DNA of 64,000 nucleotides from Raillietiella orientalis. Taxonomy: Eukaryota. The translations under genes were made by a program, and so were the position numbers. The stretch covers positions 1,488,001-1,552,000 of the forward strand of contig JAYWIR010000044.1 of assembly GCA_036172245.1 (NCBI GenBank). The letters run 5' to 3'. Positions 23,121 through 60,500 of this stretch are shown here, piece by piece. Numbering within the stretch: position 1 is the first letter of the stretch; the number at the start of each line of letters is the position of its first letter. The notes under the pieces are model-generated. The model saw only the letters and a program-made list of their open reading frames with translations. It was not told the DNA's origin and did no database searches.

Positions 23121-25046
23121 GGAGCGGACGTGGTTTGGCATCGCTCCGCGTACTGGTTGGTGGGAAACTTTTTGTTGGTTTTGTCTGGTGTGTGGGAGCT
23201 CCGGTGTCCAATGGCAGAAATGTCTGAGGACACCGCGATGGAAATTGGGGGGAGAGAGACGACTTGCTCTTCTCCACCCATGGAAGTGGGGGCACCCGCC
23301 CCCACAGAATCCGAAGCACTTACCACATCGAAATCTGGGACAACCGCCCCTTCGCGACCCTCTTCGCCAGTGGCGAAGAGTTGGAGTGCTGTCGTTGCTG
23401 CACCATCCCCGGCTGCAGTTGCGGAGCAGAATGCCTACAAAAACAGCGGCTACAAACCGTCGCTGATCTATAAGGTAGGCAGTGTATTTGACGAAAAGAT
23501 TGCACACTCCTTCGAAATAGAGCTGCAACGGCTGAATGTGAGGGAGGAAAACGTTGAGGGCCTCTCCGTCCTCAGTGCGGGACAGCGAGTCGAGCTGACC
23601 TGCAGAGATGCAAGTCTGGCGCAACGCCCGCTGAACACCCCTATTACGGTGACGGCCGCAGGATCTTCTCTGTGACGGAGGACCGCTCCGTCGTGGTCCA
23701 CCTCACAGGCGTGACACTACGGAAGGGCAAAACCGGTGTCCATGAGGAGTTGGCGAAACATGGTAATGTGCACGCGTATTGGGCCAAACCCAAAGTCTTC
23801 CGAGCGTACGGAAGGCTATTCAGTGGGATGGCCGCAGCCCGCGTCACCCTACCAGAGAATGGTGGGCTTCCCCACAAACTGAATATCGGCGAAGAAAAAG
23901 TCGATGTTTGGTACCTGGGTAAGCCCAAGTATTGTAGCCATTGCGATGCTACAGGGCATCTAAAAAAGCGGTGCCGTAACATCCAGTGCCACTTAGGTGG
24001 AAATAAGGACCACATCCGTAAGGTGTGCCCAAGAAGAGAAATCCCGCCCCCATCCGCTGCAAAAAAGGCAAAGGGGAAACGCACGGGAGAGACGCATAAA
24101 CAGAAACGGGCTGTAAACACCCAGATGCCAGTCCCTAAGCCCTCACAGCAAACATCGGTTGAGAACACTCCCGACGACGCTGGTGACGGCGAAGGCTGGC
24201 AGACGGTACAGCCACGAAGAAAACCCGGGAGTCCCGAACGAAACGCGGTGAAAACAAAAACGCAGCGCGAAAAACCGTGCCGCGAAAAGCTCCGCGCATG
24301 TTCGGTAAAATTAGAACGTGTGGAGGCACCCGATGCCGCCACCGGGGGAGCAATCCCCCCCTCGCGTCCGCCGAAGTTGCGACGGTCGATGGTGAACCCT
24401 CTGGCGAAACAGAGGGGCAAACGCGCGCCGCGCTCGACGCGATCGAGGAGGCCGCCTCCAGGCAGCCGGTGATAGAACTCACGGCTGAATTGCAAGGCCG
24501 TGAAAAGAACTCGCGAAAAGCCTTGCGAAGGCCGGCCGCGAGGAAGGCTCCGGAGGCAGGTGAGGCCGATCAGGACGTCGAAAGTGTGTCCTCTTCAGCG
24601 GAGGAGCCACCAAAGAAGACGGGACGGAAGTCTCAGAATCCCAGGAGGCGCATCCGGATCAATGAGGAGGCGGATGAATCGGCCCCCGAGGGGGAAGCCG
24701 GCAGCGTGGGAGGCGACGGTGGGAATCTCTCATTCCCCGACACCGTGCCGCTGGCGACCCCCATGTAGGAAGAAGTGCAGGTGAATGAACCCCCCCTTCC
24801 TCTGCACGGCACTGCCGACGATTTGGCCCTCATGGAGGAGGAAGAAGCGGTGCGCGACGCACCCCCTCCGCCTAGCGTTCAGCTCGACCAGGTGGTGGGA
24901 GCCCCATTGACAGTTTCCCAGGGTTAGCACCTGGGTTCGCCTGTCGCCGTCGGATCCGCGTAGCCTGCTGGAACGTCAACGTGCTGCGCGACGACGGCAA
25001 CAGGCGGGATTCGGCCGACACCCTGCGTGACTTCGAATTGGTGCTC
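23121..25046 (+). mobile_element. 5' part of an element: 5' UTR, frameshifted ORF1 (~23211-24927) and start of the endonuclease
   Basis: GGACGTG at 23126; YKPSLIYKVG motif; CSHCDATGHLKKRC knuckle; then ACWNVN. Truncated near 25046. Confidence 0.9.
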
Positions 25047-25730
25047 CCAGTTTGTGGGGAATCCCAATGTCCTTGGCTACCGTGATGCGCGCCGCGGCGA
25101 GTCCGCTTAGAAGTCCGTGGTAGGTACGGAATCTGTTGGGCTTCACCCACATTGCATGCACGGTGCCGAATTTATTCAGTTTAGCCCTGACGGCGCTCGG
25201 CGGCATCCTCAGGGTGATTCCGCTAAGGCGGACAACTATCCAGTTGTCCACTGGAACGGGGAAGAGCTAGCGGCCCTCGATCCTGACGGGGTTCGCAGCA
25301 GTGTTTGCGCCAACCCTGCTTCTTTGCAGGTCAGCTCGACATGCTGCCCCCGCTGCGGATGGATAGTCCCAACAGATCCACCTTGTTCACATTCATTCAA
25401 TGGAGATCCTGCTCGAAGGAGCGCGCCACACGGTCATCAAACAAATGGCCTACCTTGTACAGCATGCTGGGGTTGTAATTGTAGGCCTGGGCCTCGGCCA
25501 TGGAGCGACGACCACGGCGCTGTAGTCCCTCGCTAGCGCGGGGGACGATGCTTCGGGGTTGATACCACCAACTCCATGGGGACGAGGGACGTTCGACCGT
25601 CGACTCCTCCACATTTTCTAGTGGCGGGATCAGGTATTTCTGCCTTCCTTCGACCACTAAAACACCGCACTACACCAAGAAAAACGAGCGAGTCAGGAGC
25701 GCGCAAAAAAACCGTCCGACCATCGGCTCT
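25047..25730 (-). mobile_element. 5' stub of an element (5' UTR + ORF1 N-half)
   Basis: The minus strand begins GGTCGGACGGTTTTTTTGCGCGCTCC and encodes YNPSMLYKVG and KFGTVHAMWVKP...GIPHKL. Confidence 0.85.
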
Positions 25731-25731
25731 T

Positions 25732-27857: not shown

Positions 27858-27859
27858 GC

Positions 27860-28395: not shown

Positions 28396-30369
28396 GTAAT
28401 GCCGGTGTAGTGTGGGTCCTCGGTGTCCGATGGCAGCGTTGCCAAAGGACACCGCGATGGAGGTAGTCGTGAAGGAGGCGAGTCCTCCCACACCACCTAC
28501 AGATGTGGGGGCAACAGCCCCAGGACCGTCTTTGCAGCCTGCAAAGAGTTGGAACTCCAAGGTCGCCGTCCCCAGTGCGAAGGCTTTGGCCGAGGAACCT
28601 GCCTATTGGGCCAGTGGATACAAGCCATCGCTTGTGTACAAGGTAGGCCCTTTGTTTGAAGGCAATACGGCGCGCTCTTTCAGCAGAGCGCTGCAAAATA
28701 CAAATGTGCGTAAGGAAGATTCGGAAGGTCTGTCCGTGTTCAGCGGGGTGCTGCGCGTTGAGCTGGTGTGTAAGAGCATCAGCCTGGCCGATCGCCTTAT
28801 TAATACCTCGCTGATTATGGACGGCCGTAAGATCTTCCCGGTATCAATGGACCACTCGGTAGTGCTCCACTTGACAGGAATATCTAAGCGCATGACGCGC
28901 ACTTTCGTCAAAGAAGAACTAAGTAAATACGGGGACGTACACGCGCTGTGGCCGAAGCCCACAATTTTTGAGGGCTACGGGCGCAACTTCTGGGGCTTTG
29001 CCGCGGCACGTGTAACTCCAAAAGACGATGGGAAGCTTCCCCACAAACTTGAGGTCGCGGGAGAACCGGTAGACCTCTGGTATGCGCGCAAGCCACGGTA
29101 TTGCGGCTACTGCGATGCGGTCGGACACATCCGAAAAAGGTGCCCAAACATCGTATGCTACTTGTGCGGCGAGAAGAGAAACGTCCGTCGTGTGTGCCCC
29201 AAACGCCCCACCGCGATTCCCCCGTCCGCCAAAAAGGCGCAAGGGAAACGGGCGGGGAAAGAAAAACCGGAACACCGGGTAATTGGCCGAGAACAGCTGC
29301 CAGGAACCCAATCTCCAAGCGCGGCGTCGGAGCAAAAGCTCCCCGAAACCGCAGAAGGAGAAGAGGGCTGGCAGCTAGTCAAAACCAAAAAAGTGAAAAA
29401 GGACAAAGATGTCCCAAAGAAAGGAGAGAAGACCGCGTCCGGAACAAAACCGAAATCCGTGCCGCGCGTAAAAACTCTTTGCGAGTGCACGGTTACGCAG
29501 GAGCGCGTTGACGCTCCCGCCGACACCACCCGAGGCGATATGCCTTCAGTCTATGTTCCCGCTGCAACGGATGCGCGCGAAAACCCATCCCCTGCTTGCG
29601 CAGAGGATTAGCCGGGCGACAAACTCGCCGAAAGCGAGGACGCAGCCTTCGAGAAGGCCACGGAGGAGCTCGCGGCAACGCTTGCGGAACGCGAAAACGC
29701 TTCGCAGAAGGGGCTGCGTAGGCCGGCAGCGGCTAAAATGGTCCCCGCAGGTGAGTCGGACCGGGAAGGCGGAAGTGCATCCATCTCTGTGGAAGCACCA
29801 CCAAAGAAAGCGGGGCGAAAATCCCAGAAACCCCGAAGGTGCATTACACCTCCGAGAGAGGGGGATGCAATGGACGAAGATCCAGTGGACGGCAGCGTGG
29901 GAGCCCAAGTCAGGCATCACCCACGTTCGGAAGCCGACGAGGAGACGACTCCAATAAAGGAGGGTGCACAGGGGAGAGCAATGCCCCCTGAAACCGCCGA
30001 ACCTGAACAACCCGCACCAATGGATGTGGGCGAACAGGTAGGAGAAACACCCACTTCGCACGAAGAGCCGGAGACGTCGGCATCTAAGAAGGATGAGGAG
30101 TTGGTGGGCGAGACGCAAACCCCGTAGGGCGACCCGCCCCAAAAGGTGGCGGGAGTCCCACCGCCAGGTTCCCAGGAATAACACCTGGAATCGCCTGTCG
30201 CCGTCGGATCCGCGTGGCCTGTTGGAACGTCAACGGGCTGCGCGACGACGGAAACAGTCGGGACACAGCCGCCACCTTGCGAAAATTCGACCTGGCGCTT
30301 CTGCAGAAGATCCATGTGATCACCGCCAAAGACGTCCAGGAGATCAAGACGATCGCGGGGATCGGTTGT
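28396..30369 (+). mobile_element. 5' part of an element: ORF1 (28430-30181, with internal disruptions) and start of the endonuclease
   Basis: CGYCDAVGHIRKRC and CYLCGEKRNVRRVC knuckles; ACWNVNGL...LALLQKIH. Closely similar to 45646-48378. Confidence 0.92.
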
Positions 30370-38300: not shown

Positions 38301-40926
38301 GAAACCCGCACCAGGGGGTGATCGGACACCGTGGTAATAATGTCTCGAAAACCCTGGATGCGATTCCCAAGTTCGGTGCTGTGCAGGACGTGATCGAACG
38401 GCTTGTGACTTGCAGTTCGCCACACCAGTACGAACTCTTCGGATAACCGCCGATACGCCGTCCTTTCTCTGGCGTCTTCGGAGTGAGTGATCTCATCCAA
38501 TATGTTGAGATCGCCAGCAACAATCACGACGTCCTTGAAAGCAACCTTTTCACGAAGTGCTGCATGCAGCGCCTCCGCACAACGATGTTTTAGCCTGTGC
38601 GGCCCGTACACGTTCACCAGGATGAGGTGAACAGTAGCGGACCAGGCCAGTCGCACACCGATGATTCGTCCGGGTTAAGGACAGAACACTTCTAGAATAG
38701 TGAGGGTCAAGTTGTTTTTGATTAGGACTGCCACACCCTGCGTGTTCCGTTCTTCCTCGCTGACGAACATCTGCCCGTTGAATCGCCGTTCCATTTGCTG
38801 ACTAATCTCGAGACCCATCTTGTGGGTCTCCTGCAGGCACACTATGTCTTGTTGTGCGATGGTCCGCAGAATCCTTTTTCTTTTTCCCTGGTCGACCAAA
38901 CCGTTTACATTCCAGGAGGCGATGTTCAGCCTCCTGGCGATCAATAGGGAAGAGGCCATAAAAGGGGAAGTCCTATTTCTTGGCCTTCCTGAGCTTCTTC
39001 TGTCTGAGAGAGCGTGCTCTTCCACACAATGAAGAAGCAGCGGGCTTCTCGCTGCCGGCGTCACTCTCTGTTCCGGTGAGGTCGGTTACTTCCGCCTCCT
39101 CCGTCGAGTGTTCGCCCGGCGCGAACAGTTTTCGAGATAGCGTCTCTATCTCGACCTAGGCGCAGAAGTTCGCCTTTACGTCGAGAAGCTGTTCCTCTAG
39201 GTTTTCGCGCTCGGTGACCTCCACAACCTGGTTGACCTCCTGTGGATTGCAGATCTTCTGCAACATTTTCTCTTGCTGGGGACCGCTCTGCACCTCTAGG
39301 ACTTCATTAGCCAGTGATGCCAGCTCCTCCGTAGATTGCAGGGCCTCCTGCGACACCGGAGTGGCTTCGGCTATTTCTTCTTCCGCGCCTTTCTCCGCTT
39401 CCTCCATCTTCTCGCCTTCTTGCTCTTCACCTTCCAGGATAAGAAGAGCTTCTTGCTCCTAGACGAGCATCCTCCTCTTTCCTTTCTTCCCTACCTGTAT
39501 GAAGCCGTCTTCCGATACAGGGACGGCTTCTTTCACCTTCTTCGGCCTTCCTGCCTTCTGAGGCTGTTCCGCCTCCTTAGTGTTTCTCTCTCTCACGGGA
39601 GAGAGGCCTCGAATCCATCTGCAGTTTGCAAACTCCAGACAGCTCCATTTGGCATGTCCGTGTTTCTTGCAGAAGGAGAACACCTCCACCTGCGGGCAGT
39701 TTCGGACTTCATGTCCTACTTTGCCGCAGCGGAAACAACGACAAGTTGGGCAAGCGCCGGCCCTGTGGCCGAACTGCTTGCACCCGGTGCAGAATATCGG
39801 CTGTTGCCGGCAACGCACGTTTACTCCCTGGGATTGTTTGTCAAGAACGGCTAATCCAGGGATCACAGCTCCCTCTTTCAACTTTATTTTGGCGATCATG
39901 TCGCCAGAAAATATGTTTCCAGAGAAGTTCTGGAAATCAAGGTTTAGAACTTCCCCATACTGCTCCAAAAAGTTCCACACCGTTAGTTGCGGTGTGAGGA
40001 TGGAGATGCCGTTCAGAAAGACGGTTGTGTATGGCATTTCGCCAATACCACAAACCATCCGACCTTGTATATTGATCCCCTTCTGGATCAATCGCTCTCT
40101 TAATATTTCACAGTCTGTGAAGACTGTGAACCCATTATTTGCCGGTATGATCGCCTGTATGCGATCAAAATTGATATCCGTTTTATCAAGGGACAGATAC
40201 ATTTCCCTGATATTATTAAATTTGATCAGCCGAGTCTTGAAAATAATGGGCTTCACATTCGGCCCTAATTCCACGATTGGCCGATCCACCTTTTGGACTT
40301 TGCCGCATAGCGGCTTCCCGAATTTTCTTGGTGGGTGGACACTCGCTTCTCCAGCCGCCACCGACGCATAGGAAAAGGGCTGCGCCGCCGCAGCCGAACA
40401 AGATGGCGTCTCTCCCTGAACCGCGTGGATGCCCGCGGGTCCTGCCTGTTACGCCGCCGCCGCGAACGCAACCCTCGACGTCGCCACCGTTGCCGCCGCG
40501 GGCGGCACCCTCGGCATCGCCGCCGCAGGTGCGGCCTTCCCCGCCGCGGGCACGATCCTCGGCGTCGTTGCCGCGGGCACGACCTCCGCAGTCGTCGCCG
40601 CGGGCACGACCCTTGGCATCGCCGCCGCCGGCGCAGCAAAGCCCGCCGCGGGCGCGATCCTCGGCATGCCTGCCACCGCCTCGCCGTTGCCGCACGTTAC
40701 CTCCATGGCTTCCATGGGGGACGACGATGTCTCCACTCCTCCTCCAGGTGCCTGCATCCTGGCAGCTGGTCTTGCTGCACGGGACGACTGCAGGTCTTCT
40801 GCCGTGATCTCCTCGGCGCTTCCTTTGTAGTTTCGTCTGGAAACTTTCCCTCTCTGGGCACACACGAGCACAATCAACTGATTAGTTCGTCGTGCGCACA
40901 ATACTTTCAGCCGCGAAGCAAGTTCA
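35313..40926 (-). mobile_element. Full-length L1/Tx1-type element of a different lineage, nested with a 12-bp TSD
   Basis: TSD CCGACTCGGCAG at 35301-35312 and 40927-40938. ORF1 (~40757-38950) has CTGCKQFGHRAGAC and CFRCGKVGHEVRNC. ORF2 (38959-35456) has IASWNVNGL, VCLQETH, AGDLN, SDH, DMEKAFD, YAED, CTACGDIDTRLHVLTC. Several stops and frameshifts. Confidence 0.95.
40480..40672 (-). repeat. Degenerate GC-rich coding repeat (PRxxPAA units) in ORF1 of the nested element
   Basis: Recurrent GCCGCGGGC(A/G)CGA units encode MPRIAPAA / MPRVVPAA / AEVVPAA / TPRIVPAA / MPRVPPAA. Confidence 0.8.
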
Positions 40927-41594
40927 CCGACTCGGCAGGAGAGAAGCGATCTCCCGACTGTCAAGGTGACTCCGTTGCCGCCTTTTAGAGGCGTGGCGAA
41001 AGCAACGCCCCCAGAGAACGCAGCGAAAATCCCGGAGGTTTCCGCAACTACTGTCGCGGAAGCCTCCAAAAATCGCGAAGGCGATTGGAAGGTTGTGGAG
41101 AGGAGGAAAGAAAAATCTCCAAAAAAAGCTCCGCAACATCCATTCCTGAGCTCTTCCAAAGGAAAAAGCAGTCGCGGGAATACGAAAACACGCGCGGCTT
41201 GTGCCTCTTCCAAGGAAAAAGCCAGCGTCTTCAACACGTGCAAGTCCGCTTCTGTGACCGCCGAGAAGACCATTCCGGTGCAAACGGACGGATGCAAGCG
41301 CACGTAGATCGTGCGAGCATCACACTCGGCAAAGGAGTCCGATAGCGACGCTGAACGACGCGTTACTCGCGCGGAAGCGAGCGCCCGCAGGGCTGAATCC
41401 CTGAGGCGTGACACACTCGCCGCGGAACAACGAGTGCTCACCCCGGAACCCACAGGTTCTGCACCCGGGGAGAAGCACCCGATTACGTGCAGCACAGTTG
41501 AGGCCGGTGGCGACCGCGCCCTCCAGTCCGTCGTGCTGCTTACCGCTTGCTCCCCGGAGGAGGCGAGCACCACGGCCTCGGTTTCCCAGCCGTG

Positions 41595-44500
41595 ATGAGG
41601 GCAATCGCGTGTTCTCGTCGTGTTGCCGTAACGTCTTGGAACGTCAACGGGCTCCAACACGAGAAGAAGAGGCGACTAGTGGCCTACGCTCTGCTCTCCT
41701 TCGACTTGACGCTCCTGCAGAAAATTCACAACATCTCCGAAGAGCAGGCTGCCGAAATCGAACGGCGCGCGGACGGAACGTTACTTTATAGGTGCGGCGT
41801 TGCACGTACGTGCGGCGTCGCTTTCCTCGTGCTAGGAACTTTGGTGGGAGCGGTGCGCAGCGTTCGCTTCGACACGGAAGGCCGAGTGGGACAGCTTGCA
41901 CTCAAGTGGTCCGACTCGATCGACCTTGTCGTAACCCACGTGTACGCGCCGAGTTGTGCTGGACGATGGGCCGAAAGGATTGAGTTCTTCGGTACCCTTC
42001 AAAGCCAGTGGCTCACTCGATCTCACCCTACTGTGGCCCATCTCATTGCGGGGGACTTGAACGTCCACCTTCTTTCCGAGAATAGATCTTACAAAAGGGA
42101 AACGTTGCTAGCGGAAGAGATATGCGCGTCCGTGCACGCGTGCAGCTTGTTCGCTAGCGACCCTGTTATGGCAGCAACGCCGGACCACGTATACCTTGAT
42201 GAACACTTGCTCTCTTGAGTGGGTCGGAGATATCCCGTGCCGTCCGTGCTTTCAGACCACAACAGGCTCGAGTTCGAGTTGCTCCCGCCAGACAAGGGGA
42301 CTGGCATACCATCACTCCCGTCTTTTCTCTAGGATTCTCGACGTTTGCCTCCTGGCGGAGTATAAAGCTGGGGCTGAGCGACAGACCTGGCAATCTGGGT
42401 CGGCCAGCTTGCTGGACGCCCAAGGCCAGGAATGCTCAGTTCCGGCGAAAATAAACAGCATCCTGCGGGACTATTACTCCTCCTTGTACGCGCGTAGAAC
42501 AACAGAGAACGCCGTGGCGCAGCGCTTGCTGCCGCAAGGCGCCCCCGCGCTGCAGGAGGAGCAGGCACATGAACTCGCGGAGCCTTTCTCGATGGCAGAG
42601 ATCGTCTCCGCCATCGGAAAGCTCCGAAAGAGAAAAGCACCAGGGGAAGACGGTCTGCCCGCGGAGTTCTACCAAGGCTTCGTGGCGGATCTGGCCCCCC
42701 TGGTGCATCGGCTATGCATGCTGATCCGAGAACAAGGGGACCTCCCCAAATCGTTCCGGTCAGCTAGAGTACGTCTCCTGCCGAAAGGAGGAGACAATCG
42801 CAACGTAGGCAACTGGCGTCCCATCACAGTAGTGAATGCGGATGCGAAGTTGCTTGCCACGCTTTGGGCTGAGCGACTGGGACGGGTGGCGGAATCCGTG
42901 GTGAGTCCGGAGCAGACATACGCTGTTCCCGGACGAAGCATGGAGGCCAACCTGTTCCTCGCCAGTACATGGTGGCAGTTGCAACGAAGCGAAGACCAGG
43001 GAGGTCAAGAAAATCCTGAATTCTTCTGTGACCAGGAAGGGGACGCCCTTCATGGAAGAGCCGCGCCCGGTGCCCTTGCGGTCGCAGTCGATCTGCGTAA
43101 AGCGTTCGATTGCGTCGACCAGGAACTGCTTCTGGAGCTCCTGGAACGCTTGGGATTCCCGGCCATCTTCCGGGCTTACCTGCGCTCCTGCTGGCGCTTC
43201 GCTCAAATAAACATCTCTTTTAGCGGCCGGCACGTGTACGGCGTGCCGGTTCGGCGTGGCATAAGGCAGGGTGACAGTCTGAGCCCCATGCTCTTCAGCA
43301 TCTACTTCGAGCTGGTGCTGAGGGCATACAGGGAGACTCTGGCAACCCTGCCAAGCTCGTGTCCCGGCACGCCTGCCGTGTCGACCTACGCCGACGACCT
43401 TCTGCTCCTGCTCCCCGGGTCCACCCCGGCGTCGGCGCTCGAAGATTTCTTTGAGTTGCTGCGCCGCGAGACGGGCCTCGAGGTGAACAGAGAGAAATCC
43501 ACAATCGTTCCTACATCACCAATACTTTCAAACAATACGGCGTGGGCCGGACGGCCGGACTGGATCCGCCTGGGGATCCCAACGGGCAGGTGCTTCAAGT
43601 ACCTTGGCGTTCCGTTGGGGGACTTCTGCGTTGCAGAAGCCTGGTCCGACCGTCTCCAAAAGGTGGAGTTGGCGATTGGCCCGTTGCGGAACGGCAAGTT
43701 TTACTTGCAGGAGCGGGCCGCTGTGTGGAACGCGTTCGCGGCCCCCCTCCTTCGCCCCTTACTTTTTGTTTGCTTCGCCCCTCCCATCATACAGAGACGG
43801 ACCAAAGCCCTCTTGAGGACTGCCCTTTGGGGCACAGCGAGGTCGCGAGTCCGATTGAAAGACTTGTGCGCTCCACGCAGGGATGGTGGCTTGGGCCTCC
43901 TTACGTTGGAGCGCATCCAACTTCAAACAACAATTCGAAAGTTAGCCCTTGCGGCTAGCTTATGGATGACGCCATTGTGCGATCCGGCACGGCTCCTCGC
44001 CAGAAGAGCGACCGGCTGCGAAGGATTGTCCTCGATCCTCGTGTCCTACCAGCGCAGCCTCTCCAAATGTGGTTCCGATTTGCGCCAGATGGTCGCCCTG
44101 ATGAGGGAGAATACCTGGATCTCCTGCATCCCCGCGAACTGCACTGCCTGGCTTCAGGAGTCAGCTTCCGCGTGGGCTAAGATCAACGGAACGAGCGAGG
44201 CGGAATACAACTGCCTACGACGAGGACCGTACGCTCGACAACCGCGGCAGGATATTATCAACAGGCCCCGGAAGTTTCTGTGGGCTTCTTTCAGCCCCCT
44301 TGCTCCCGTTCTGTCCTCCCTGAAAAACAGTAGAAGCAGCAACGAGCTGGCATCGTGGGAAGTGTCCTGCCTCATCCGAGGCAGGAAAAAACCTTTAAAG
44401 GCGTGGACGACTCGGGAGCTCACGGACGCTGCCACCCCGAGCGTCCCGCCTCACGGACTTGCGCGCGGGGGAGAGCTGCTCGCAATACCTCCGGAGGAGG

Positions 44501-45214: not shown

Positions 45215-45216
<2 letters not shown>

Positions 45217-45260
<44 letters not shown>

Positions 45261-45287
45261 AGAGAGAGAGAGATAGTAAAAATGCCC

Positions 45288-45360
<73 letters not shown>

Positions 45361-45400
45361 ATGTGTCCGGGTGTGACGGCGCGCTCTCTCTCTCTCTCTC
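45217..45400. repeat. Compound low-complexity tract: (AG)n, (CA)n, ~60-nt A run, (CT)n
   Basis: Directly visible in the sequence. Confidence 0.95.
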
Positions 45401-45407
45401 GGCGCGC

Positions 45408-45645
45408 TCTGTTGTTCTACGCGCGCACAAGGAGGAGTAATAGTCCCGCAGGATGCGGTTTATTTTCGCCGGAACTGAGCATTCCTGGCCTTGGGCGTCC
45501 AGCAAGCTGGCCGACCCAGATTGCAAGGTCTGTCGCTCAGCCCCAGCTTTATACTCCGCCAGCAGGCAAACGTCGAGAATCCTAGAGAAAAGACGGGAGT
45601 GATGGTATGCCAAGTCCTTCCTCAGCTCTTCGCCGAAAGCCGGTG
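45408..45645 (-). mobile_element. Inverted fragment of the 33956-45200 subfamily (EN-RT linker)
   Basis: Near-identical reverse complement of ~42300-42507, but it keeps TGFGEELRKD, which is deleted in that copy. Confidence 0.88.
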
Positions 45646-48378
45646 TGGGTGGACGTGTTTTTTGGTCGCTCCGCCAGCGCTTGTCTGGGAAGCAGCCGGA
45701 GTTTTCAGTGTAGTCAGGTGTAAAGTGTGGGTCGTCGGTGTCCGATCGCAGCCGTGCCAGAGGACACCGCGATAAATGTAGTTGTAAGGGAGGCAAGTCC
45801 TACCACAAGACCTACAGCTATGGGGGCAATAGTCCCTGGAACGTCTTCGCAGCCGGCGAAAACTTGGAGTGAAATGGTCGCCGCCCCCAGTGCGGAGGCC
45901 ATGGCCTAGGAAGCCGCCTATCGGGCCTCTGAATACGAGCCATCGCTTGTATACAAGGTAAGCCCTTTGTTTGAAGGAAACACGGCGCGCTCTTTTAGCA
46001 GAGCGCTTCAAAATGCTAATGTCCGTGAGGAAGATCTGGAATGTCTGTGCATGCTCAGCGGGGCGCAGCGGGTTGAGCTGGTGTGCAAGAGCATCAGCCC
46101 AGCCGATCGCCTTATAAATACCCCGCTCATCATGGACGGCCGTAAGATCTTCCCGGTGTCAATGGACCACTCGGTAGTGGTCAACTTGACAGGAATATCT
46201 AAGCGCATGACGCGCACTGCCGTAAAACAAGAATTAAGTAAGTACGGGGACGTACACGCGCTGTGGCCGAAGCCCACAATTTTTGAGGGCTACGGGCGCA
46301 ACTTCTGGGGCTTTGCCGCGGCACGTGTAACTCCAAAAGACGATGGGAAGCTTCCCCACAAACTTGAGGTCGCGGGAGAACCGGTAGACCTATGGTATGC
46401 GCGCAAGCCACGGTATTGCGGCTACTGCGATGCGGTCGGACACATCCGAAAGAGGTGCTTAAACATCGTATGCTACTAGTGCGGGGAGAAGGGACACGTC
46501 CGTCGCGGGTGCACTAATCGCCCCACACCAATTTCCTCCGCCGCCAAAAAAGCGCAAGGGAAACGCGCGGGGAAAGAAAAATTGGAAAACCGTGAAACTG
46601 GCCGAGAAAAGCTTCCAATAACCCAAACTCCAAGCGCGGCATCGGAGAAAAATCTTCCCGAAATTGCAGAAGGAGAACAGGGCTGGCAGCTAGTCAAAGC
46701 CAAAAAAGAGAAAAAGGACAAGCATGTCCCGAAGAAAGGAGAGAAGGCGGCGGCGGGAACAAAAGCTCAATCCGTGTCGCGCGTAAAAACTCTCCGAGAA
46801 TGCACGGTTACGCTGGAGCGCACTGACGTTCCCGCCGACACCACCGCAGGCGATACGGCTTCGATCGATTTTCCCGCCGCGACGAATGCGCGCTAAAACC
46901 CACCCTCTGCTTGCGAAGAGCGTCAGCCAGACGACAAAATCGCCGAAACCAAGGACGCAGCCTTCGAGAAGGCCGCCGAGGAGCTTGCGGCAACGCTTGC
47001 CGAACGCGAGAACCCTTCGAGAAAGGGGTTGCGTAGGCCAGCAGCGTCTAAAGTGGCCCCCGCAGGTGAGTCGGACCGGGAAACAGGAAGTGCATTCTCC
47101 TCTGCAGAAGCACCACCAAGGAAAGCGGGGCGAAAATCCCAGAAACCCCGAAGGTGCATTCCGCCTCCGCGCGAGGGGGATGCAATGGTGGAGGAACCAG
47201 TGGATGGCAGCGTGGGAGCCCAAGTCGGGCATCACCCACGTGCGGAAGCCGACGAGGAGGCGACTCCAATGGAGGAGGGTAACCAGGGGTCAGCAATGCC
47301 CTCTGAAACCGCCGAACCTGAACCACCCGCACCAATGGATGTGGGCCAACACGTACGAACAACACCTTTTTCGCACGGGCAGCCGGAGAAGTCGGCACGT
47401 AAGAAGGATGGGGAGTTGGTGGGCAAGACGCCAACCCCGTTTAGCGACCCGCCCCAAAAGGTGGTGGGAGCCCCACCGCCAGGTTCCCAGGAATAACACC
47501 TGGGCTCGCCTGTCGCCGTCGGATCCGCGCGTCCAGTTGGAATGTTAACGGGCTGCGCGACGACGGAAACAGACGAGATACAGCCGCCACCTTGCGAGAT
47601 TTCGACCTAGTGCTTTTGCTGGAGATCCACGTGATCACCGCAAAAGACGCCCAGGAGATCGAAACGATCGCGGGAGGGCGGTTGTACTGGCGATGCGGCG
47701 CCCGCAACACTTGTGGGGTCGCGTTCTTCCTAAAGCCAGCCATTAACGCGGCCGTGAAGGGCGTGCGCTTTGGGGACGACGGACGGATCGGCCAACTGAT
47801 TCTCAGATGGTCCGATTCGATCGACCTCATCGTCACCAATGTGTACGCTCCTAGCGGTAAACAGGGATACCAGCAGCGCAACGCGTTACTGGAAACCTTG
47901 AAGCGCGAATGGCTGGTGGACGCAGACGTGCGAAAGGCGCATCTGATAGTAGGGGATTTCAACTTCCGTCTGCTCTGAGATCAGCCCGGAGCACAGGGGA
48001 ACGCGATCAACGAGTTGTGCGCCGCCATGCGCGCGCGCAACTTGTTGACAGAAATAAGCGGGATGGTCAGCAGCGTGGACCACGTTTTCCTCGACGAAGA
48101 CCTGTGCACACGGGTCGGAAAACGAGGGACACTTGGATCGACGCTGTCGGACCATTCCCAGTTAGTATTCGAGATGCACCCGCGCGAAAAGGGACCTCCA
48201 TCCAGGGATTGGCGTATGCCAGGGGACTGGACGCGCCTGTCAGGAGCGAAAGAACATCTTTGCGAATTCCTGCGAGGCGTCAGCCTCCAGAGTTTCGCGG
48301 ATTGGGACCTATTTAAGGACTCGGTCCGGGAGTTCTGAGAACAGTTCCCTGTGCAACGTCTGCCCCGGGGATTCGGCG
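45646..48378 (+). mobile_element. 5' part of an element: 5' UTR, disrupted ORF1 (to 47496) and endonuclease
   Basis: GGACGTG at 45651; paralog of 28396-30369; SWNVNGL, VGDFN, DHVFLD, LSDH. Confidence 0.92.
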
Positions 48379-51300: not shown

Positions 51301-54300
51301 CGAATCCGGGGGGCAGGCGATCCAGAGGGAACTGCTCACAGAACTCGCGGACCGATTCCTCAAAAAGGTCCCAGTCCTGGAGATTCCGGAGCGTGACGCT
51401 TCTCAGGTATTCGCGAAGGCGTTCCTTCGCACTTGAGAGTCGCGTCCAGTCCTGCGGCAGACGCCAATCCCTGGATGGCGGTCCTTTGTCTCGAGGCCGC
51501 ATCTCGAAAATTAACCGGGAATGGTCCGACAACGTCGACGCAACCCTCCCCCGTTTGCCGACCCGTGAACACAGGTCAGCGTCGAGGAAGACGTGGTCGA
51601 TGCTGCGGACCATTCCCCTCTCACCCGCGAACAAGTTGCACGCACGCATGGCGGCGCACAACTCGTTCATCGCGTTCTCTTGTGTTTCTGGGTCACCAGT
51701 TAGCAGACGGAGATTGAAATTTATTACCCGGTCACGCCGGGGCGTTTATTAATAATAATAAAGTGGTCAGGGACAATGTTCTTAACCAACATAACAACAG
51801 AGAACATAGAAAAATTACCGGCACGCAGGCCTGGTAAACAAACCGCTCGCAGCGTGGGAGGAATGAGGGGAAACAAACCAAAATCAAAAACTGGAGGGAA
51901 GGGTAACGGGTTTTTTGTTAGGCTCCGTACTCACGGGGATTTAAACGATGAGCACCTAATATGTTCCGGAGCCTATGGGAACGCGGGTGTAAAAAGAGAA
52001 TATAAAATTAGTTTATGGAGGGTAGGGCGATGATCACCGTGTTGGCCGCTGCTGAGCGTGTGTAAACCGGCGGTGTATTGCGGCGAGATTCCTCTTTGTC
52101 TCCTCTGTCAAATGAGGCCATCTAGCGGATGCTCCCATGTAGAAGGATGCTTTGCTGATTACCTCTTGGTGCTGTCCGTTGATTACCAACGCCTGGAGGA
52201 CGGAAACTATCGCGCGTATGCAACCGATGGATGCGATCCTTGCGCTTAGTGAGAGCCCGCTCGGCGTGAAGAATCGTCGCAGCAAGTCTCTTGCGGTGTT
52301 CACGGGATGCATTAGTGCTTTTGCCAGCCTACGCCACAGTCCTTGTAGGACACCGCAGTCCAGAAGTAGGTGCGGAATCGACTCCGTCGTTCCGCACCGA
52401 ACGCAGTTCGCAGACGCAAGTCCCCCGGAGTCACGATGTCAACGCTCGCTGCACTGAAAACCCCAGTGAACGAAAAGCAGCACGGCTTGCTTCCAAGCAA
52501 GGGAGAGCAGCGAACTGTCGATACACTGTGGAGGGACTACAAGTTCTTCGGGGGTGACTGCAAGTTCTTCTGCCCACCGGAGGAGTCCCTTTGCAGTAAC
52601 ACGAGGAGTGGCGGCGTCCGCCAACTCACTTGTCTTCCAGGTGCCAAGGAGTTTGGTTTTTCCCGCTATCGTGCAGGAAACCTCCCACCTCGCCGGTTGG
52701 TAACTGTCGTTTCTTGCCCTGAGGGCATACAGCGCTGCGGCAAGAGGCGTGGCAGCCAGGGTAGAAAACTTCACCTCGTCCTGCGGTACTTCTTCCAAGG
52801 ATCGTGGAAAAAATTGGCGCAGGGGGCGAAGATCTTCAGGGCGTATTCCTTGGAACGCCGCCCAACTCGGTTGAAATCTCCCGCTATCAGGTGAGCCTAC
52901 CGCACGTTCGTGTCCGCCAGCCAGTCGCGCTTCAGGGATTCCAGCAGCCTGGTACGGTCGCTGTATCCCTGTTTACCGCTAGGGGCGTACACATTCGTGA
53001 CGATCAGTTCGATCAAGTCGGACCAGCTGAGAATCAGCTGACCGACCCGACCGTCGTCCTCGAAGCGCACGCCCTCCACGGCAGCGTCGATGGCGGGCTT
53101 CACGAAGAACGCGACCCCGCAGGTGTTGCGGAGGCCGCACCGCCAATACAACCGACCCCCCGCGATCGTTTCGATCTCCTGAGCGTCTGCCGCGGTGATC
53201 ACGTGGATCTCCTGCAGCAGGGCCAGGTCGAGCTCACGCTGGGTGTCGGCCGTATCTCGCATGTTACCGTTGTCGCGCACCCCGTTGACGTTCCAACAGG
53301 CGGCGCGAATCCGACGGCGACTGGCGAGCCCAGGTGTTACTCCTGGGAAGATGGCGATGCGGCGTCCGCCACCTGTTGGGGCGGGACGCTAGGTGGAGGA
53401 GGAGGGTCAGGCGCTGCGTGCACCTGGTCCCCCTCCTCCATGGGTAACGGCGCGTCGAGCGCGTCACCCTCAGGTGGGGTCGCGCCTACCTGTTGGCCTC
53501 CTCCATGGGGGCGGGCTGTTCAGGCTCGGCGACTGCAGGGAGGACTTCGCCCCCCTGCTCACCCTCCTCCATGGGGGTGGCCGGCTCGACGGCTTCCGAG
53601 CGTGGGAGTTCCCCCTCCGGGATTCCCACGCTACCGCTAGCTTCCTGCTTCTCCTCCTCGCTGGACGAGGGGAGGCGCCTCCTGGGTTTTTGGGACTTGC
53701 GTCCCGACTTCCTGGGGGGTGCCTCCGAGGAAAAGGATGCACTTCCAGCCCCCAGGTCCGACTCACCTGTGGGGGCCTTTTACGCGGGAGCCGGCCTTCG
53801 CACGGCCTTGCGTGAGGGGTTCTCACGCTCCGCCAGCGTGGCCGCGAGCTCCTCCGCCGCCTTTGCGAACGCGGCGTCCTCGGTGTCGACCATCGCGTCG
53901 CGCGGCTCACCCTCTGTTTGCACAGAGGGTTCGCCGTCGCGAACTTCGGGAGCGACGGAAACGGCGAGGGGAGGCTCTTCGCCCCGGGTGGCCTCTTCCG
54001 GAACGACGATACGTTCCAGTGCCACCGTGCACTCGCGCACGGTTTTCGAACGCGGCCCGGGTTTTTTTGCCTTACCGGCCGGCTTCTCTTTCTTCTCCTA
54101 TAAAGGAGCTTTTCTCTCTTTTCTGGCTGCTACAAGTTGCCAGCCCTCTTCACCTTCCGCCTCTTGGGAAGGTTTATCCTCCGTCTTTTCTTTTGGAGGT
54201 TGAGGATCTTGCAGCTTAAGCCGACCAGCGTCCGCCTTAGGTCTTGTGACCTTTAGTGCGCGTTTCCCCTGCGCCTTTTTCGCGGCAGGAGGAACCGGAG

Positions 54301-54582
54301 TGGGGCGTTTTGGGCACACACGTCGAACGTGGCCCTTCTCCCCGCACATGTGGCATTGGATGTTAGGACACCTCTTGCGAAGGTGTCCTACGGTATCGCA
54401 GTAGCCGCAATACCGGGGCTTTCCCACGTACCAGAGGTCCATGCTCTCTTGCGCGACCTCCAGCTTGTGGGGAAGCCCACAGTCCTTACTTACGGTTACT
54501 CGCGCTGCATCCTGGCCTCCGAAATGGCTATTGAAGCCTTCAAAGATTGTTGGCTTAGGTCACAGCGCGTGCACCTCGCCGA
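48379..54582 (-). mobile_element. Element lacking its 5' ~600 nt, with nested insert 51721-52868
   Basis: Terminal motif at 48379-48409; RT motifs DLHKAFD, GIRQGDSLSP, YAND; endonuclease split at GDFN; ORF1 C-half with CGYCDTVGHLRKRC. Confidence 0.93.
51721..52868 (-). mobile_element. Internally deleted copy of the 56900-62805 element at the homologous site
   Basis: Reverse complement of ~61663-62805 preceded by the 5' bases GAGT; flanked by GATTGAAAT (51712-51720) and GGTTGAAAT (52869-52877). Confidence 0.9.
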
Positions 54583-54589
54583 CTCGCTT

Positions 54590-57500
54590 GGCGAGTGGAC
54601 GTGTGTTTCCTTCGCTCCCGAGTGAGTCGACAGGAAGCGGTTTTTTATTGTGTTGTTTGGTGTGGAACATCGTTGGTGTCCGATGGCAGCGATGCCTGAG
54701 GACACCACGATGGAGGTAGGTGTGGGGGAGGCTTGACCACCCCCACAGCCTACAGAATCAGGGGCGTCCGCCCCGGAATCGCCCTCGCCGCCCAAGGCGA
54801 GGAGCTGGAGCGCCATGGTGGCCGCGCCGAGCGCGGAAACCGTGGCCGAGATGGCGGCCTACCGGTCAGCTGGGTACAAGCCCAGCTTGGTGTACCAGGT
54901 AGGCCCCTTATTTGACGGAAAAACGGCACGCGCGTTTTCGAAAGCGCTGCAAAACGCCGGAGAAAGAGAACAAGATCTTGACGGTTTGTCCGTTCTCAGC
55001 GAAGGTCAGCGAGTCGAGGTGGTGTGCAAGGAGATCACCTTGGCTCAGACTCTGATCACCAACCCGTTGAACGTCGACGGCCGCAAGATCTTGCCGGTGA
55101 CGATGGACCGCTCCGTGGTGGTCCATCTCACTGGAATAACGAGCCGTATGACTCGCTCTGCAGTAGCACAAGAACTACAAAAGTTCGGCGACGTGCACGC
55201 GCTGTGGCCTAAGCCAACAATCTTTGAAGGCTTCAATAGCCATTTCGGGGGCCAGGCTGCAGCGCGGGTAACCGTAAGTAAGGACTGTGGGCTTCCCCAC
55301 AAGCTGGAGGTCGCGCAAGAGAGCGTGGACCTCTGGTACGTGGGAAAGCCCCGGTATTGCGGCTACTGCGATACCGTAGGACACCTTCGCAAGAGGTGTC
55401 CTAACATCCAATGCCACATGTGCGGGGAGAAGGGCCACGTTCGACGTGTGTGCCCAAAACACCCCACTCCGGTTCCTCCTGCCGCGAAAAAGGCGCAGAT
55501 GAAACGCGCACTAAAGGTCACAAGACCTAAGGCGGACGCTGGCCGGCTGAAGCTGCCAGATCCTCAACCTTCAAAAGAAAAGACGGAGGATAAACCTTCC
55601 CAAGAGGCGGAAGGTGAAGAGCGCTGGCAACTTGTAGCAGCCAGAAAAGAGAGAAAAGCTCCTTAGAAGGAGAAGAAGGAGAAGCCGGCCGGTAAGGAAA
55701 AAAAACCCGGGCCGCGTTCGAAAACCGTACGCGAGTGCACGGTGGCACTGGAACGTATCGTCGTTCCGGAAGAGGCCACCCGGGGCGACGAGCCTCCCCT
55801 CGCCGTTTCCGTCGCGCCCGAAGTTCGCGACGGCGAACCCTCTGTGCAAACAGAGGATGAGCCGCGCGATGCGCCGGTCAACACCGAGGACGCCGCGTTC
55901 GCAAAGGCGGCAGAGGAGCTCGCGGCCACGCTGGAGGAGCGTGAGAACCCCTCACGCAAGGCCGTGCCAAGGCCGGCTCCCGCGAAAAAGGCCCCCACAG
56001 GTGAGTCGGACCTTTGGGCCGGAAGTGCATCCTCCTCCTCGAAGGTACCCCCCAGGAAGTCGGGACGCAAGTCCCAAAAACCCAGGAGGCGCCTCCCCTC
56101 GTCCAGCGAGGAGGAGAAGCAGGAAGCTAGCGGTAGCGTGGGAATCCCGGAGGGGGAACTCCCACGCTCGGAAGCCGTCGAGCCGGCCACCCCCATGGAG
56201 GAGGGTGAGCAGAGGGGCGTAGTCCTCCCTGCAGTCGCCGAGCCTGAACAGCCCGCCCCCATGGAGGAGGGCCAACAGGTAGGCGCGACCCCACCTGAGG
56301 GTGACGCGCTCGACGCGCCGTTACCCATGGAGGAGGGGGACCAGGTGCACGCAGCGCCTGACCCTCCTCCTCCACCTAGCGTCCCGCCCCAACAGGTGGC
56401 GGACGCCGCATCGCCATCTTCCCAGGAGTAACACCTGGGCTCGGCAGTCGCCGTCGGATTCGCGCCGCCTGTTGGAACGTCAACGGGCTGCGCGACGACG
56501 GTAACAGGCGAGATACGGCCGACACCCTGCGTGAGCTCGACCTGGCCCTGCTGCAGGAGATCCACGTGATCACCGCGGCAGACGCCCAGGAGATCGAGAC
56601 GATCGCGGGGGGTCGGTTGTATTGGCGGTGCGGCCTCCGCAACACCTGCGGGGTCGGGTTCTTCGTGAAGCCCGCCATCGACGCTGCCGTGAAGGCCGTG
56701 CGCTTCGATGACGACGGTCGGGTCGGTCAGCTGATTCTCAGCTGGTCCGACTCGATCGAACTGATCGTCACGAATGTGTACGCCCCCAGCGGTAAACAGG
56801 GATACAGCGACCGTACCAGGATGCTGGAATCCCCGAAGCGCGACTGGCTGGCGGACACGAACGTGGGGAAGGCTCAGCTGATAGCGGGAGATTTCAATCG
56901 AGTGCGGACGTGTTTTTCTTTGCTCTCGTCTCCGTGCTTTCATCCGCTTCATCTTGGCGTCGTACATTTTGACGACGATGTCGACCCAACTTGAAGCAAC
57001 TGAAGTTGGAGGAACAGCATCCGGATCTGCAATCGCGGAACCGACGGCCGCCTCCACTTCGTCTTTATCGCCAATGGAGAGGAGTTCTGCTGACGTTGCT
57101 GCCACAGCAGCCGTCAAAGGGAAGCCACTCGACGAGTCGGAGTTTCGGGCATACGTAGCCGAAGGCTATAGACCTGCTCTCCGATATAAGGTGAGTGGTT
57201 TTCTTTCTGCGCGCGACGGGAATCAGTTCAACGATGAACTGACCCGTGTTGGCGTGCGGGAGGAGGACCTTCTCGCCATTATGCCCGTAAAAGACATGGG
57301 CTATTTCAACGTGCGTTGCAAAGACGCTACACTTGTGCAACGCTTGCTGCGCACCCCGCTGTCGATCCGTGGCCAGAAGGTCTTCCCGGCTGCCATGGAC
57401 GACTCATTTGTGGCAAAGATTTTCCACATCGAGTCGGAAATCTCCGATACTGATATTCGGAACGCGTTGGCGAAATTCGCCACGGTCCATGCGCTGTGGA

Positions 57501-60500
57501 GGGTGCGTAGCAACCTCAAGGACTTCCCGTCCATACACAGCGGAGTCGCTGGAGTCCGGCTTACAATGCCGGACCGCCGTCTGCTTCCCACCAAACTACA
57601 AGTGAAAGACACGGTCGTTCACCTGTGGTTCGTGGGCAAAGTAAGAACGTGCGAGCAATGCGGGAAGTAGGGGCATTGTTTGGATAAATGCCCCTCTGGA
57701 AAATGCCGTTATTGCAAACTATCAGGGCACCAATTGAAAAATTGCCCGGATCTTTTGCGAAAAAAGGCAGCCGCGGAGCTCCATCTTAGAAAACAAAGCG
57801 CAAATAAAAAGAAAAAATCTGCGAAACACATGGAGACCTCACGGCAGAAATTCGGTAAAAACGCGAGGCGGAATGTCGCCCCAAAGCAGCAGGGAACCTC
57901 GCACGCGAAGCCCTGCGCGCCCCCTCTCGCGGCAGGGGAGCCGCAAAAGAAAGGGTGCGGGGAATCCGGGGCAATAATAAGTCCCCCTAGTCTCAATAGC
58001 TGTCCTTCCCAAGCACGCCCGGCTCTCTCGGAGTTCGAGCAACCGGCGGGGACGCCAATGGACAACGGCGGTAACGACACTTCCAGTACCGTCAGATCCA
58101 TTCCTTTACCTCCTGCAGTGGCTGAGAAGCCCAAATCGGGTAAGAAGGGTTGTGCCGTGTCGACTTCGAAAGTCGGCAAAAAAAAATCCGCGTCGCGATC
58201 CAACACCGCGAAAGCGGAGAAAAATCTCACGCCGTCGCAGTCGGAGAGCAAGCTCTCGACTGGCGCGGATGCCATGACAACGAAGGGATTAAAAGCCCTC
58301 CCGAAGGCAGCGTCCATGACGATCGTGTCGGAGCCATCGAAAGTGCTTTCGTCCAAAGACGCGGATGGCTTCAAAGATGGCAATGGAGCACAATCTCCAT
58401 TTACGGCGCCACGCGAAGTGAGGAACCGTAATGAAGTAAAGAAGACTTCCGCAAAGGTCCCTCGTGCAACTGCGCGTGAGCACGCTGAAAACGCGCGCGC
58501 CGGGAAAGCAGCCGTCACCAAAAGCAATGCTCTGGTGACGGAAAACGACAACAGGACAGCTGTCGATCCAGCAGAAACTGTCACTGCTTCGCGGAAGGCC
58601 GAAACCCGATCAACCATGCGCCGGTCGGACTCCGAAATGGATGCCGTTCCGATCACCGAGACGAGGACAACTCGTTGAAAAGCGTGTGCGCGCCGATCAA
58701 AAGTAGGCAGCCAGGCAACGCTCGCCGCGAAGCAACGCGGAGTCTCCACGAAACCCGACGGGGTTAAGCCTGACGTGGAGGCATTACATGCATGCAGCAC
58801 GACGGAGGACGGTGGCGACCGTCCCCTCCAGCCAGTCGTGCTGCTCGCAGTCTGCTCGCCGGATAAAGCAAGCAAAAAGCTGCCACCTTCCCGGCAGTAA
58901 TGCGGGAAATCGCATCTTTTCGTCGTCTGTCCGTAACGTGTTGGAACGTGAACGGACTGCAGAACGACGAGAAGAGGCGATTAGTAGCCAACGCCCTGCG
59001 CCCCTTCGACCTCGCGCTCCTGCAGGAGATTTACGTAATCTCCGACGAACAGGCAGCCGAAATCGCGGAGCGCGCAAGCGGAACGCTACATCGGCGGTGC
59101 GGCGGCGCACACACGTGCGGCGTCGCGTTCCTCGTAAGAGGAAAAATGGCGGAAGCGGTGCGTAGTGTTCGTTCCGATGACGACGGACGGATAGGCCAGC
59201 TTGTCATCAAGTGGTCCGAGTCCATCGATCTCGTCGTTACGAACGTCTACGCGCCGAGTGGCTCTCGCAACCTCGAAGAAAGAGTAGCTTTCTTTGGTGA
59301 GGTGCAGAGCAACTGGCTTAACAACTCCGGCTTCCAAGTGGCGCACCTCGTCGCTGGGGACTTCAACGTCCGCCTGCTCTCCGACGATTGGAGCCGCCCG
59401 AGGGAGCGCGCGCTGCCCACCGAGATGTGCGCGTCCGTGCACGCCGCCAACTTGATGGTCAGCGAACCTGGAATGGAAAGATCGCTCGATCACGTTTTCC
59501 TCGATAAAAACCTGCATTCGCGTGTGGGTAGGAGAGGAAGATTGTTGACTGAGCTTTCTGACCACCACAGGTTGGAGTTTGAGATCCTTCCGCCAGGCAG
59601 GGGGTCTCCGTTGCAATGCTGGAGGATGCAGGCGGATTGGCTTAGCCAACCGGAAGCTGCGGAGCATCTACGTGGATACCTCCGAGGCTTTGCCATTCAA
59701 GAACTTGCGGACTGGGATGATCTCAAAAGATCTGTCCGCGAGTTCTGTTGCCAATCCCCCTTGCACCGGCTTCCATGCGGTTTCGGAGAGGGCGTGGCCA
59801 ACAGTAGAGACTTTCTGCAGGCCCGCACGTTTTCAAAACGCGCGGATGTTGGGTGTCTCGCAGAGTACAAGGCGAGGGCCGAGCGCCAGGTCTGGCAGTC
59901 CGGAGCAGCATGCCTGTTAAACGACAAGGGCCAGGAATGTTCGGCCCCAGCCGAGGTACGCCGCATTGTGAGACGCTACTACTCCTCGCTCTACGCGAAA
60001 TCCTTGACGGAGGATATTCTTTCTGAGATACTCCTGTCTCAGGATGCTCGTGTTGTCGGCGAGGAGGAACGCGAACGTCTCGACGAGCCCTTCACGGCGG
60101 ATGAATTTTCGTCCGCCTTCGCTGGGCTGAAGAGACGAAAGGCGCCAGGCGAGGATGGGCTCCCTGCAGAGTTTTATCAGTGCTTTGCAGTGGAGCGCAT
60201 TCCCTTGATGCTGAAACTCGCGACGCTGATGAGTGAATCCGGGAATGTCCCAGATTCCTTCCGCTCAGCGAAGGTGCGTCTCCTGCCGAAAGGCGGAGAC
60301 TTGCGCCAACTTAACAACTGGCGTCCGATCACCTTGGTGAACTCGGACGTCAAGTTGTTTTCCAAGCTGTAAGTCGCGCGGTTAGGAAGTATCGCGGAAT
60401 CTGTAATGAGCCCGGAACAAACCTGCGCGGTTCCGGGACGATCCATGGAGGCGAACATCCTTTTCGCTCGTCCATGGATGCAGCTGCAGGAAGTTGTGGC

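Follow-up and report, generated by a model that had tools for sequence, protein, structure and literature searches.

How the second open reading frame (ORF) of bicistronic long interspersed nuclear elements (LINEs) is translated is presented as an open question in passages of several reviews (PMC3894237, PMC5381506, PMC5009743). The prior experimental basis comes from two elements. For SART1, review passages state that ORF2 requires a UAAUG pentamer together with an RNA structure downstream of the ORF1 stop, and that wider spacing lowers ORF2 translation (PMC10275272, PMC5972666, PMC3708506). For human L1, ORF2 initiation is described as independent of its AUG (PMC5009743, PMC5972666), which was shown dispensable by mutagenesis only, and the same passages suggest that sequences inside ORF2 help to position the ribosome. 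Here we describe the ORF1/ORF2 junctions of a group of retrotransposons in a 64-kb stretch of the Raillietiella orientalis assembly GCA_036172245.1 (contig JAYWIR010000044.1, positions 1,488,001 to 1,552,000 of the forward strand), hereafter the window, to which all positions refer. The elements are L1/Tx1-like by their nearest named matches. Copies with a UAAUG or UGAUG junction extend SART1-type coupling to what appears to be another clade, while a sister lineage without any AUG is new in itself, having lost the ORF2 start codon naturally and lastingly with the rest of the scaffold left as it was.

The likeness to SART1 (Bombyx mori, R1 clade) lies in the overlap of stop and start and in the -1 frame of ORF2, and the pentamer of one copy, G, is identical to the UAAUG of SART1, with UGAUG in another, C. 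At the DNA level the pentamer is thus TAATG in G and TGATG in C, whereas A has TAGCA and B, D, E and F have TAACA, with the register kept. An RNA structure downstream of the ORF1 stop was predicted in all six independent copies, as review passages describe one for SART1. The present family differs from SART1 in its clade (L1/Tx1-like by nearest named matches) and in having one lineage with UAACA or UAGCA and no AUG. Human LINE-1 is a bicistronic LINE whose ORF2 is translated without need of an AUG, but there the AUG is naturally present, dispensable by mutagenesis, and a 63-nt spacer separates ORF1 from ORF2, whereas the AUG-less lineage lacks the codon by nature and has no spacer, its junction being followed by a defined hairpin.

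Viral termination-reinitiation, as in influenza B virus M1/BM2, the UAAUG of Cryphonectria hypovirus 1 (CHV1) and the termination upstream ribosome-binding site (TURBS) of caliciviruses, shares the stop-start overlap. The downstream ORF is translated there at low efficiency and a non-AUG restart is tolerated at a reduced level, with near-cognate restart codons reaching at most 45% in TURBS systems (PMC10275272) and UAACG or UAAGC restart in CHV1 retaining 7-8% activity (PMC2699510). The viral systems differ from the present family in their dependence on upstream sequence, either TURBS motif 1 or the upstream coding region, whereas here the conserved structure lies downstream. TURBS motif 1 is UGGGA and pairs with 18S rRNA. 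When the alignment was read for TGGGA within ~90 nt 5' of the stop, it was present in A and D only, with CGGGA in B and nothing comparable in F, C or G. The stretch 5' of the junction (24877-24916, 30131-30170 and 47446-47485) contains GGTGGYGGGAGYCCCACCGCC, which in B and D could fold into a further GC-rich hairpin; the UGGGA within this region of A and D is complementary to the invariant UCCCA of TTCCCAG. The region is unconserved in F, C and G.

Searching the window with its own frames (tblastn) gave eight ORF1/ORF2 junctions, lettered A to H (Table 1). A pattern search for CCCAGG-N7-CCTGG recovered all five sites listed in the preliminary description of this DNA, at 24917, 30171, 47486, 53329/53330 (minus-strand reading) and 56421, among nine strand-wise matches where 0.08 were expected, and nine were reached by none of 100 shuffles. 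At each of the five the ORF1 stop lies in the 7-nt loop, as TAG in GTTAGCA or as TAA in AATAACA and AGTAACA; three-frame translation and alignments agree with the preliminary description on this point. ORF2 uses the -1 frame. The codon that shares the final base of the stop, which we call the register codon, is GCA in A and ACA in B, D, E and F. It aligns with the ATG of TGATG (C) and of TAATG (G), 14 codons before the W of the WNVN motif, in all seven copies, hence the common register described earlier holds throughout. Upstream, the ORF2 frame is closed 18 codons away in A, D, E and F, four copies where three had been counted before, and is open for 28 codons in B. The reported lack of an ATG did stand: none of the copies has an in-frame methionine codon within the open stretch of 17-28 codons that precedes the register codon, AUG-less copies have no in-frame AUG between the upstream stop and the W, and no methionine occurs in the first 160 ORF2 residues of D. 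Conservation along the ORF1-to-ORF2 alignment is highest at the junction (pairwise identity 0.77-0.91); a junction-specific conservation peak was considered and rejected, as between D and F the following ORF2 codons are about equally conserved.

All of these counts come from one 64-kb window, in which four AUG-less copies (A, B, D and F) are independent, two copies (C and G) have an AUG and one (H) serves as outgroup. E and F are the arms of a single inverted duplication (52865-54582 and 55185-56903) which are 96.5% identical and separated by a spacer of ~600 bp, and their dN/dS, the ratio of nonsynonymous to synonymous substitution rates, is 1.17, as for recent duplicates. The five AUG-less copies of the preliminary description therefore count as four.

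Directly 3' of the junction, a long irregular stem-loop of ~75 nt was predicted by RNAalifold from the six independent copies A, B, C, D, F and G. The feature goes beyond the preliminary description and is present in 6/6 copies, AUG-less and AUG-bearing alike. In each, pairing begins 7-9 nt 3' of the ORF1 stop, the loop falls on the W-N codons and the whole has the endonuclease codons for WNVNG at its centre. Dinucleotide shuffles rarely folded as well as the 75-nt stem-loop (0-2 of 200 per copy), and among 500 recodings of the same protein (26 codons, family codon usage) none was as stable in A, B, D, F and G and a single one in C, hence the protein sequence does not explain the stem-loop. 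Other 75-nt windows more stable than that at the junction numbered none in A and B, one in D, 9 of 716 in F, 12 of 1944 in G and 145 of 1876 in C. The alifold consensus structure had 85.4% of its cells paired, against 29-52% when the partners were slid, and contained eight pairs changed on both sides, a count reached by 13 of 500 shuffles. In the divergent element H, whose ORF2 is ~27% identical, the ORF1 stop precedes the ORF2 AUG by 14 nt, and a stem-loop starting 6 nt after that AUG (-29.3 kcal/mol, z -3.63) was matched in stability by 5 of 500 recodings. A 131-nt fold of H (38885-38990, minus strand) places a first helix that encloses the stop and pairs the AUG ahead of the large stem-loop, with z -2.22 for the whole. 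Rfam at gathering thresholds returned no match at any junction, its one match in the window being a ribosomal RNA fragment elsewhere. We infer that the stem-loop acts in translation.

The preliminary description had instead centred on a 6-bp hairpin with the stop in its loop, which the folds do not show to be the key element. Folding predicts this small hairpin in A, D, E and F, in B with 5 bp, and with a different sequence in G; none comparable was predicted in C, or in H over a short window. Its stem is identical throughout the AUG-less group and thus offers no covariation, 90-nt folds centred on it were no better than shuffles (z -0.05 to -1.98), and 7.4% of positions in these elements put a triplet in a loop closed by at least 5 bp. 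A ribosome with the stop in its A site would cover both arms, so that the small hairpin would be melted at termination. Any role of the small hairpin would at most be accessory.

The evolutionary comparisons bear on whether the AUG-less state belongs to working elements. ORF1 amino-acid identity is 78% between B and D, ~61% between B or D and F, and 45-49% between A and the rest. For ORF1, dN/dS is 0.267 (B against F) and 0.270 (D against F) at dS ~1.1, compared with 0.93 and 1.09 in the wrong frames. For the 156 ORF2 codons of D and F counted from the ACA codon, dN/dS is 0.245 at dS 0.51, and it is 0.256 over codons 30-156, outside the codons of the hairpin; the same stretch read in the wrong frames gives 1.27 and 1.63. 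The stretch up to WNVNG is conserved and forms part of the endonuclease fold. The four AUG-less lineages are separated by dS of ~0.5 to >1, and since they have a non-AUG codon in common and parallel two-base changes are unlikely, the state would date to their common ancestor. These patterns support an AUG-less junction that is old, inherited and functional rather than a product of copy decay, and that appears to have persisted while ORF2 was a selected protein. As ORF2 is under selection and no usable in-frame AUG is present, the ORF2 of this lineage must, to judge from the sequences, be entered by an AUG-independent route.

The same data weigh on the idea that ORF2 of the AUG-less lineage is not translated at all, the lineage being dead or mobilised in trans by AUG-type elements and the hairpin serving ribonucleoprotein assembly or recognition by ORF2p. 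The AUG-less copies of the window are indeed all broken and interrupted within ORF2, the AUG-type copies C and G lie in the same window, G with a target duplication, and the translational role of the hairpin is itself an interpretation. Purifying selection on ORF2 (dN/dS 0.245, or 0.256 beyond the codons of the hairpin, compared with 1.27-1.63 for wrong frames) and a state common to four lineages at dS ~0.5 to >1 both speak against it, however, and the interruptions of ORF2 are secondary, as with the insertion of G into F. We consider an untranslated lineage very unlikely.

A further route without an AUG at the junction would be a spliced or subgenomic mRNA. Immediately before the stop, TTCCC(A/G)G is kept in all seven copies, as first reported and as the alignment bears out (invariant columns T99, T100, C101, C102, C103 and G105). 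With TTCCCAG|G (in G, TTCCCGGCAG|T) as a 3' acceptor, ORF1 could be removed as an intron, joining an upstream AUG or 5' end to ORF2. This is the sole upstream block invariant in 7/7, the ORF1 tails being otherwise unalignable across lineages, we read it as resembling a short pyrimidine tract followed by CAG|G, and fair donor-like GT sites occur early in ORF1 of B, D and F, for example AAG|GTARGC. The putative donors that are conserved, AAG|GTA and GAG|GTA, are in phase 0, however, and splicing of either to CAG|G would remain in the ORF1 frame and reach the stop; by our reading a phase-1 donor would be required for the ORF2 frame. The candidate GT sites lie in conserved coding sequence, hence their conservation is uninformative, and the likeness of donors and acceptor is one judged by eye. 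Splicing also leaves the stop-start register and the hairpin spacing unexplained, and on balance it appears improbable.

We tentatively favour, as the best of the readings considered, a SART1-like termination-reinitiation that has grown independent of AUG. The coupling module would consist of the ORF1 stop, the overlapping first codon of ORF2 in the -1 frame and the ~75-nt stem-loop 7-9 nt after the stop. By this geometry, a ribosome ending ORF1 would carry the stop in the A site and abut the base of the stem-loop with its entry channel. The stem-loop would hold the post-termination ribosome or 40S subunit at the junction, and the held ribosome or subunit would then start ORF2 at the adjacent codon. 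C and G would use UGAUG and UAAUG for this, whereas in the old lineage of A, B, D and E/F the AUG would have changed to ACA or GCA (UAACA/UAGCA). Because the AUG-less lineage has kept the hairpin, the register and an ORF2 protein under selection, we propose that it reinitiates without AUG. C and G fully fit the SART1-type arrangement, and for their AUG-less relatives the same event without AUG would be the simplest reading of our analysis. We infer that this event is reinitiation rather than frameshifting. The preliminary description had offered non-AUG reinitiation or a -1 frameshift; the need for an AUG-independent route is upheld, and the sequence is compatible with both.

Several observations weigh against reinitiation without AUG. 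ACA and GCA differ from AUG at two positions at least, so they are not near-cognate starts, and such changes in CHV1 are reported to lower reinitiation by 92-93% and to leave the virus not viable (PMC2699510). Every copy in the window is broken, and the AUG-less state is represented by only four independent copies from one window. In the final 14 codons of ORF1, the substitutions agree better with the ORF2 frame than with that of ORF1 (the ratio of nonsynonymous to synonymous proportions, pN/pS, being 0.59 against 2.99), which would favour translation in the ORF2 frame upstream of the stop and hence a fusion protein; this test has 15 variable columns only and is not significant (chi-square p ~0.25). 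In the AUG-less copies the P-site codons are compatible with re-pairing by -1, as a frameshift would need. The covariation counts derive from six related sequences and from a structure obtained from those same sequences, which flatters them, and the strand asymmetry is not decisive, the sense strand being more stable in four of seven copies, equal in one and less stable in two. Among the sequencing runs listed with the window sequence there was one DNA run (X1, share 0.35) and no RNA run, and relatives with a junction were not found elsewhere in searches of metagenomes, proteins, genome contigs and viral contigs.

Some of these points fit a different event, in which the ribosome slips by -1 at a 'shifty stop' against the 75-nt hairpin, the P-site tRNA moving back one base to yield an ORF1-ORF2 fusion with no initiation. 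As in -1 frameshifting of the retroviral gag-pol type, the second ORF is read in the -1 frame, with a stable structure 7-9 nt 3' of the candidate site; the canonical arrangement has such a structure 5-9 nt from the shift site, and all six copies show it. The spacing also matches the 6-9 nt given in review passages for 3' frameshift stimulators (PMC5009743). Under the pairing rules assumed here, the last sense codons of the AUG-less copies allow re-pairing (G-GAA to GGA, G-GAG to GGA, G-GGT to GGG), whereas those of the AUG-bearing copies disallow it (G-CCG to GCC, G-CAG to GCA). No start codon is needed, which explains the tolerance of codons that are not near-cognate, and the lean of the last 14 ORF1 codons towards the ORF2 frame points weakly the same way, although a slip at the last codon leaves an ORF2-frame constraint further upstream unexplained. 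Unlike gag-pol type sites, however, the junctions have no X XXY YYZ heptamer in the ORF1 frame within the last 90 nt (0/8), and at the one candidate site a stop codon occupies the A site. To our knowledge there is no established eukaryotic mechanism for a programmed -1 P-site slip at a stop codon, and the ORF1p and ORF2p of L1-like elements are normally separate proteins, both of which count against a slip. The 'shifty stop' of the review passages concerns +1 events of the antizyme type, and sister copies with the same hairpin use UAAUG or UGAUG, the classical signature of reinitiation. A slip is the less probable event, though more plausible than splicing or an untranslated ORF2. It would mean that the lineage permanently gave up its ORF2 start codon for a hairpin-stimulated -1 P-site slip at the stop, evolved directly from a UAAUG site, a course of events that we likewise rate as unlikely. 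If true, the recoding signal would be a 'shifty stop' with a 75-nt stem-loop replacing the slippery heptamer, and reinitiation and frameshifting would be interconvertible on one RNA scaffold.

Relatives of the family were sought in several collections. A protein search with the RT part of C returned one relative with 65% identity, which comprised the RT only and covered no junction; other matches were at most 30% identical, and the named ones among them were fish, frog and grass reverse transcriptases. A protein search with the ORF2 N-terminus of D gave no matches among 195 candidates, and exact-pattern scans for the AUG-less junction gave none in genome contigs and none in viral contigs. A metagenome scan with an alignment of ORF2 N-termini yielded 22 loci at 21-34% identity, most of which look like bacterial genes of the exonuclease III type, whose start and stop overlap as GTGA, or like unrelated elements; all 22 were rejected as members of the family. 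Contigs of X1 on 39500-53500 at 80% likeness amounted to 556 pieces (X2 and X3 gave none), and the differences listed among them did not include the junction bases. We found no description of a natural AUG-less stop-start junction in a LINE in the literature, in a search that did not cover older work on LINEs with overlapping ORFs.

Table 1 Positions of the ORF1/ORF2 junctions, predicted stem-loops and inserted element in the 64-kb window
Feature	Junction (kb)	Coordinates	Strand	Description
Copy A junction	24.9	24917..24935	+	small hairpin CCCAGG/CCTGGG; stop TAG 24925-24927; GCA 24927-24929
Copy A stem-loop		24935..25009	+	-43.4 kcal/mol, z -3.97; top-stability 75-nt window of A
Copy B junction	30.2	30171..30188	+	small hairpin of 5 bp (outermost pair broken); stop TAA 30179-30181; ACA 30181-30183
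Copy B stem-loop		30189..30263	+	-42.6 kcal/mol, z -4.34; top-stability 75-nt window of B
Divergent element H	38.9	38885..38975	-	ORF1 stop UAG 38975-38973; ORF2 AUG 38959-38957; stem-loop 38950-38885
Copy C junction	41.6	41593..41597	+	overlapping stop-start TGATG; clear small hairpin absent
Copy C stem-loop		41603..41677	+	-31.7 kcal/mol, z -3.26; weakest of the six
Copy D junction	47.5	47486..47504	+	small hairpin; stop TAA 47494-47496; ACA 47496-47498
Copy D stem-loop		47504..47578	+	-38.1 kcal/mol, z -3.41
Copy E junction and downstream stem-loop	53.3	53255..53347	-	inverted duplicate of F; stop TAA 53339-53337; ACA 53337-53335
Copy F junction	56.4	56421..56439	+	small hairpin; stop TAA 56429-56431; ACA 56431-56433
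Copy F stem-loop		56439..56513	+	-46.5 kcal/mol, z -4.80
Element G		56899..62805	+	full-length AUG-type insertion, 5.9 kb, in ORF2 of F; ORF2 of F resumes at ~62805
Copy G junction	58.9	58888..58908	+	TTCCCG/CGGGAA hairpin around TAATG (58898-58902)
Copy G stem-loop		58908..58982	+	-39.6 kcal/mol, z -6.07

The junctions lie in the part of the window from ~12 kb to 64 kb, which is G+C-rich (0.53-0.62) and is a nest of L1/Tx1-like APE-type non-long-terminal-repeat retrotransposons on both strands. In the long frames, Pfam matches were to Exo_endo_phos in G (E 6.6e-14) and RVT_1 in C (E 2.2e-24) and G (E 7e-15), hence the elements have the N-terminal apurinic-endonuclease-like domain followed by a reverse transcriptase that marks the APE type. 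A match to zf-RVT was weak (23.6 bits against a cut-off of 27.5), as were zinc-knuckle matches in ORF1. Similarity among B, D and F starts only ~25 nt 5' of the ORF1 ATG (28405-28430, 45720-45745 and 54658-54683), and the 5' untranslated region of the family thus seems either very short or non-conserved.

No intact copy is present in the window. The AUG-less copies are interrupted within ORF2 by nested insertions or rearrangements, and C and G are near full length yet carry frame breaks or stops, the break in C lying near 42.1-42.2 kb and G having in-frame stops and one frameshift. G is flanked by an 8-bp target duplication, ATTTCAAT (56891-56898 and 62806-62813). It was the only copy examined for a poly(A) or simple-repeat tail and has none, its 3' end ...GTGACCGGGTGATAA abutting the target duplication with no A-run; the last letters of the element are ...GGGTGATAA. 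The outer ends of the E/F inverted duplication fall at the insertion point of G in F, and beside E on the minus strand there are only 3' pieces resembling G. Twin-priming 5' inversion was considered for the interrupted AUG-less copies and dropped, as the arrangement is tail-to-tail and G has simply split F by inserting into it.

A fragment of eukaryotic large-subunit (LSU) rRNA lies within the transposon nest (19067-19248, minus strand; Rfam RF02543, 83.5 bits, model positions 1176-1350 of 3401), and could be a transduced or captured piece or the remnant of an insertion site in ribosomal DNA. The first 12 kb of the window are A+T-rich (G+C ~0.31-0.43), with a sharp rise in G+C at ~12 kb, and contain exons of a DENN-domain gene on the minus strand (dDENN at 2064-3233, uDENN and DENN at 3671-4246).

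The window holds a natural experiment, in which sister lineages with the same hairpin and register differ in whether they have an AUG, with ORF2 demonstrably under selection in the one that lacks it. This bears on whether reinitiation in LINEs is truly independent of a start codon or is replaced by frameshifting. The large hairpin centred on WNVNG occurs in three divergent families and may be a widespread property of ORF2 5' ends that has been overlooked.

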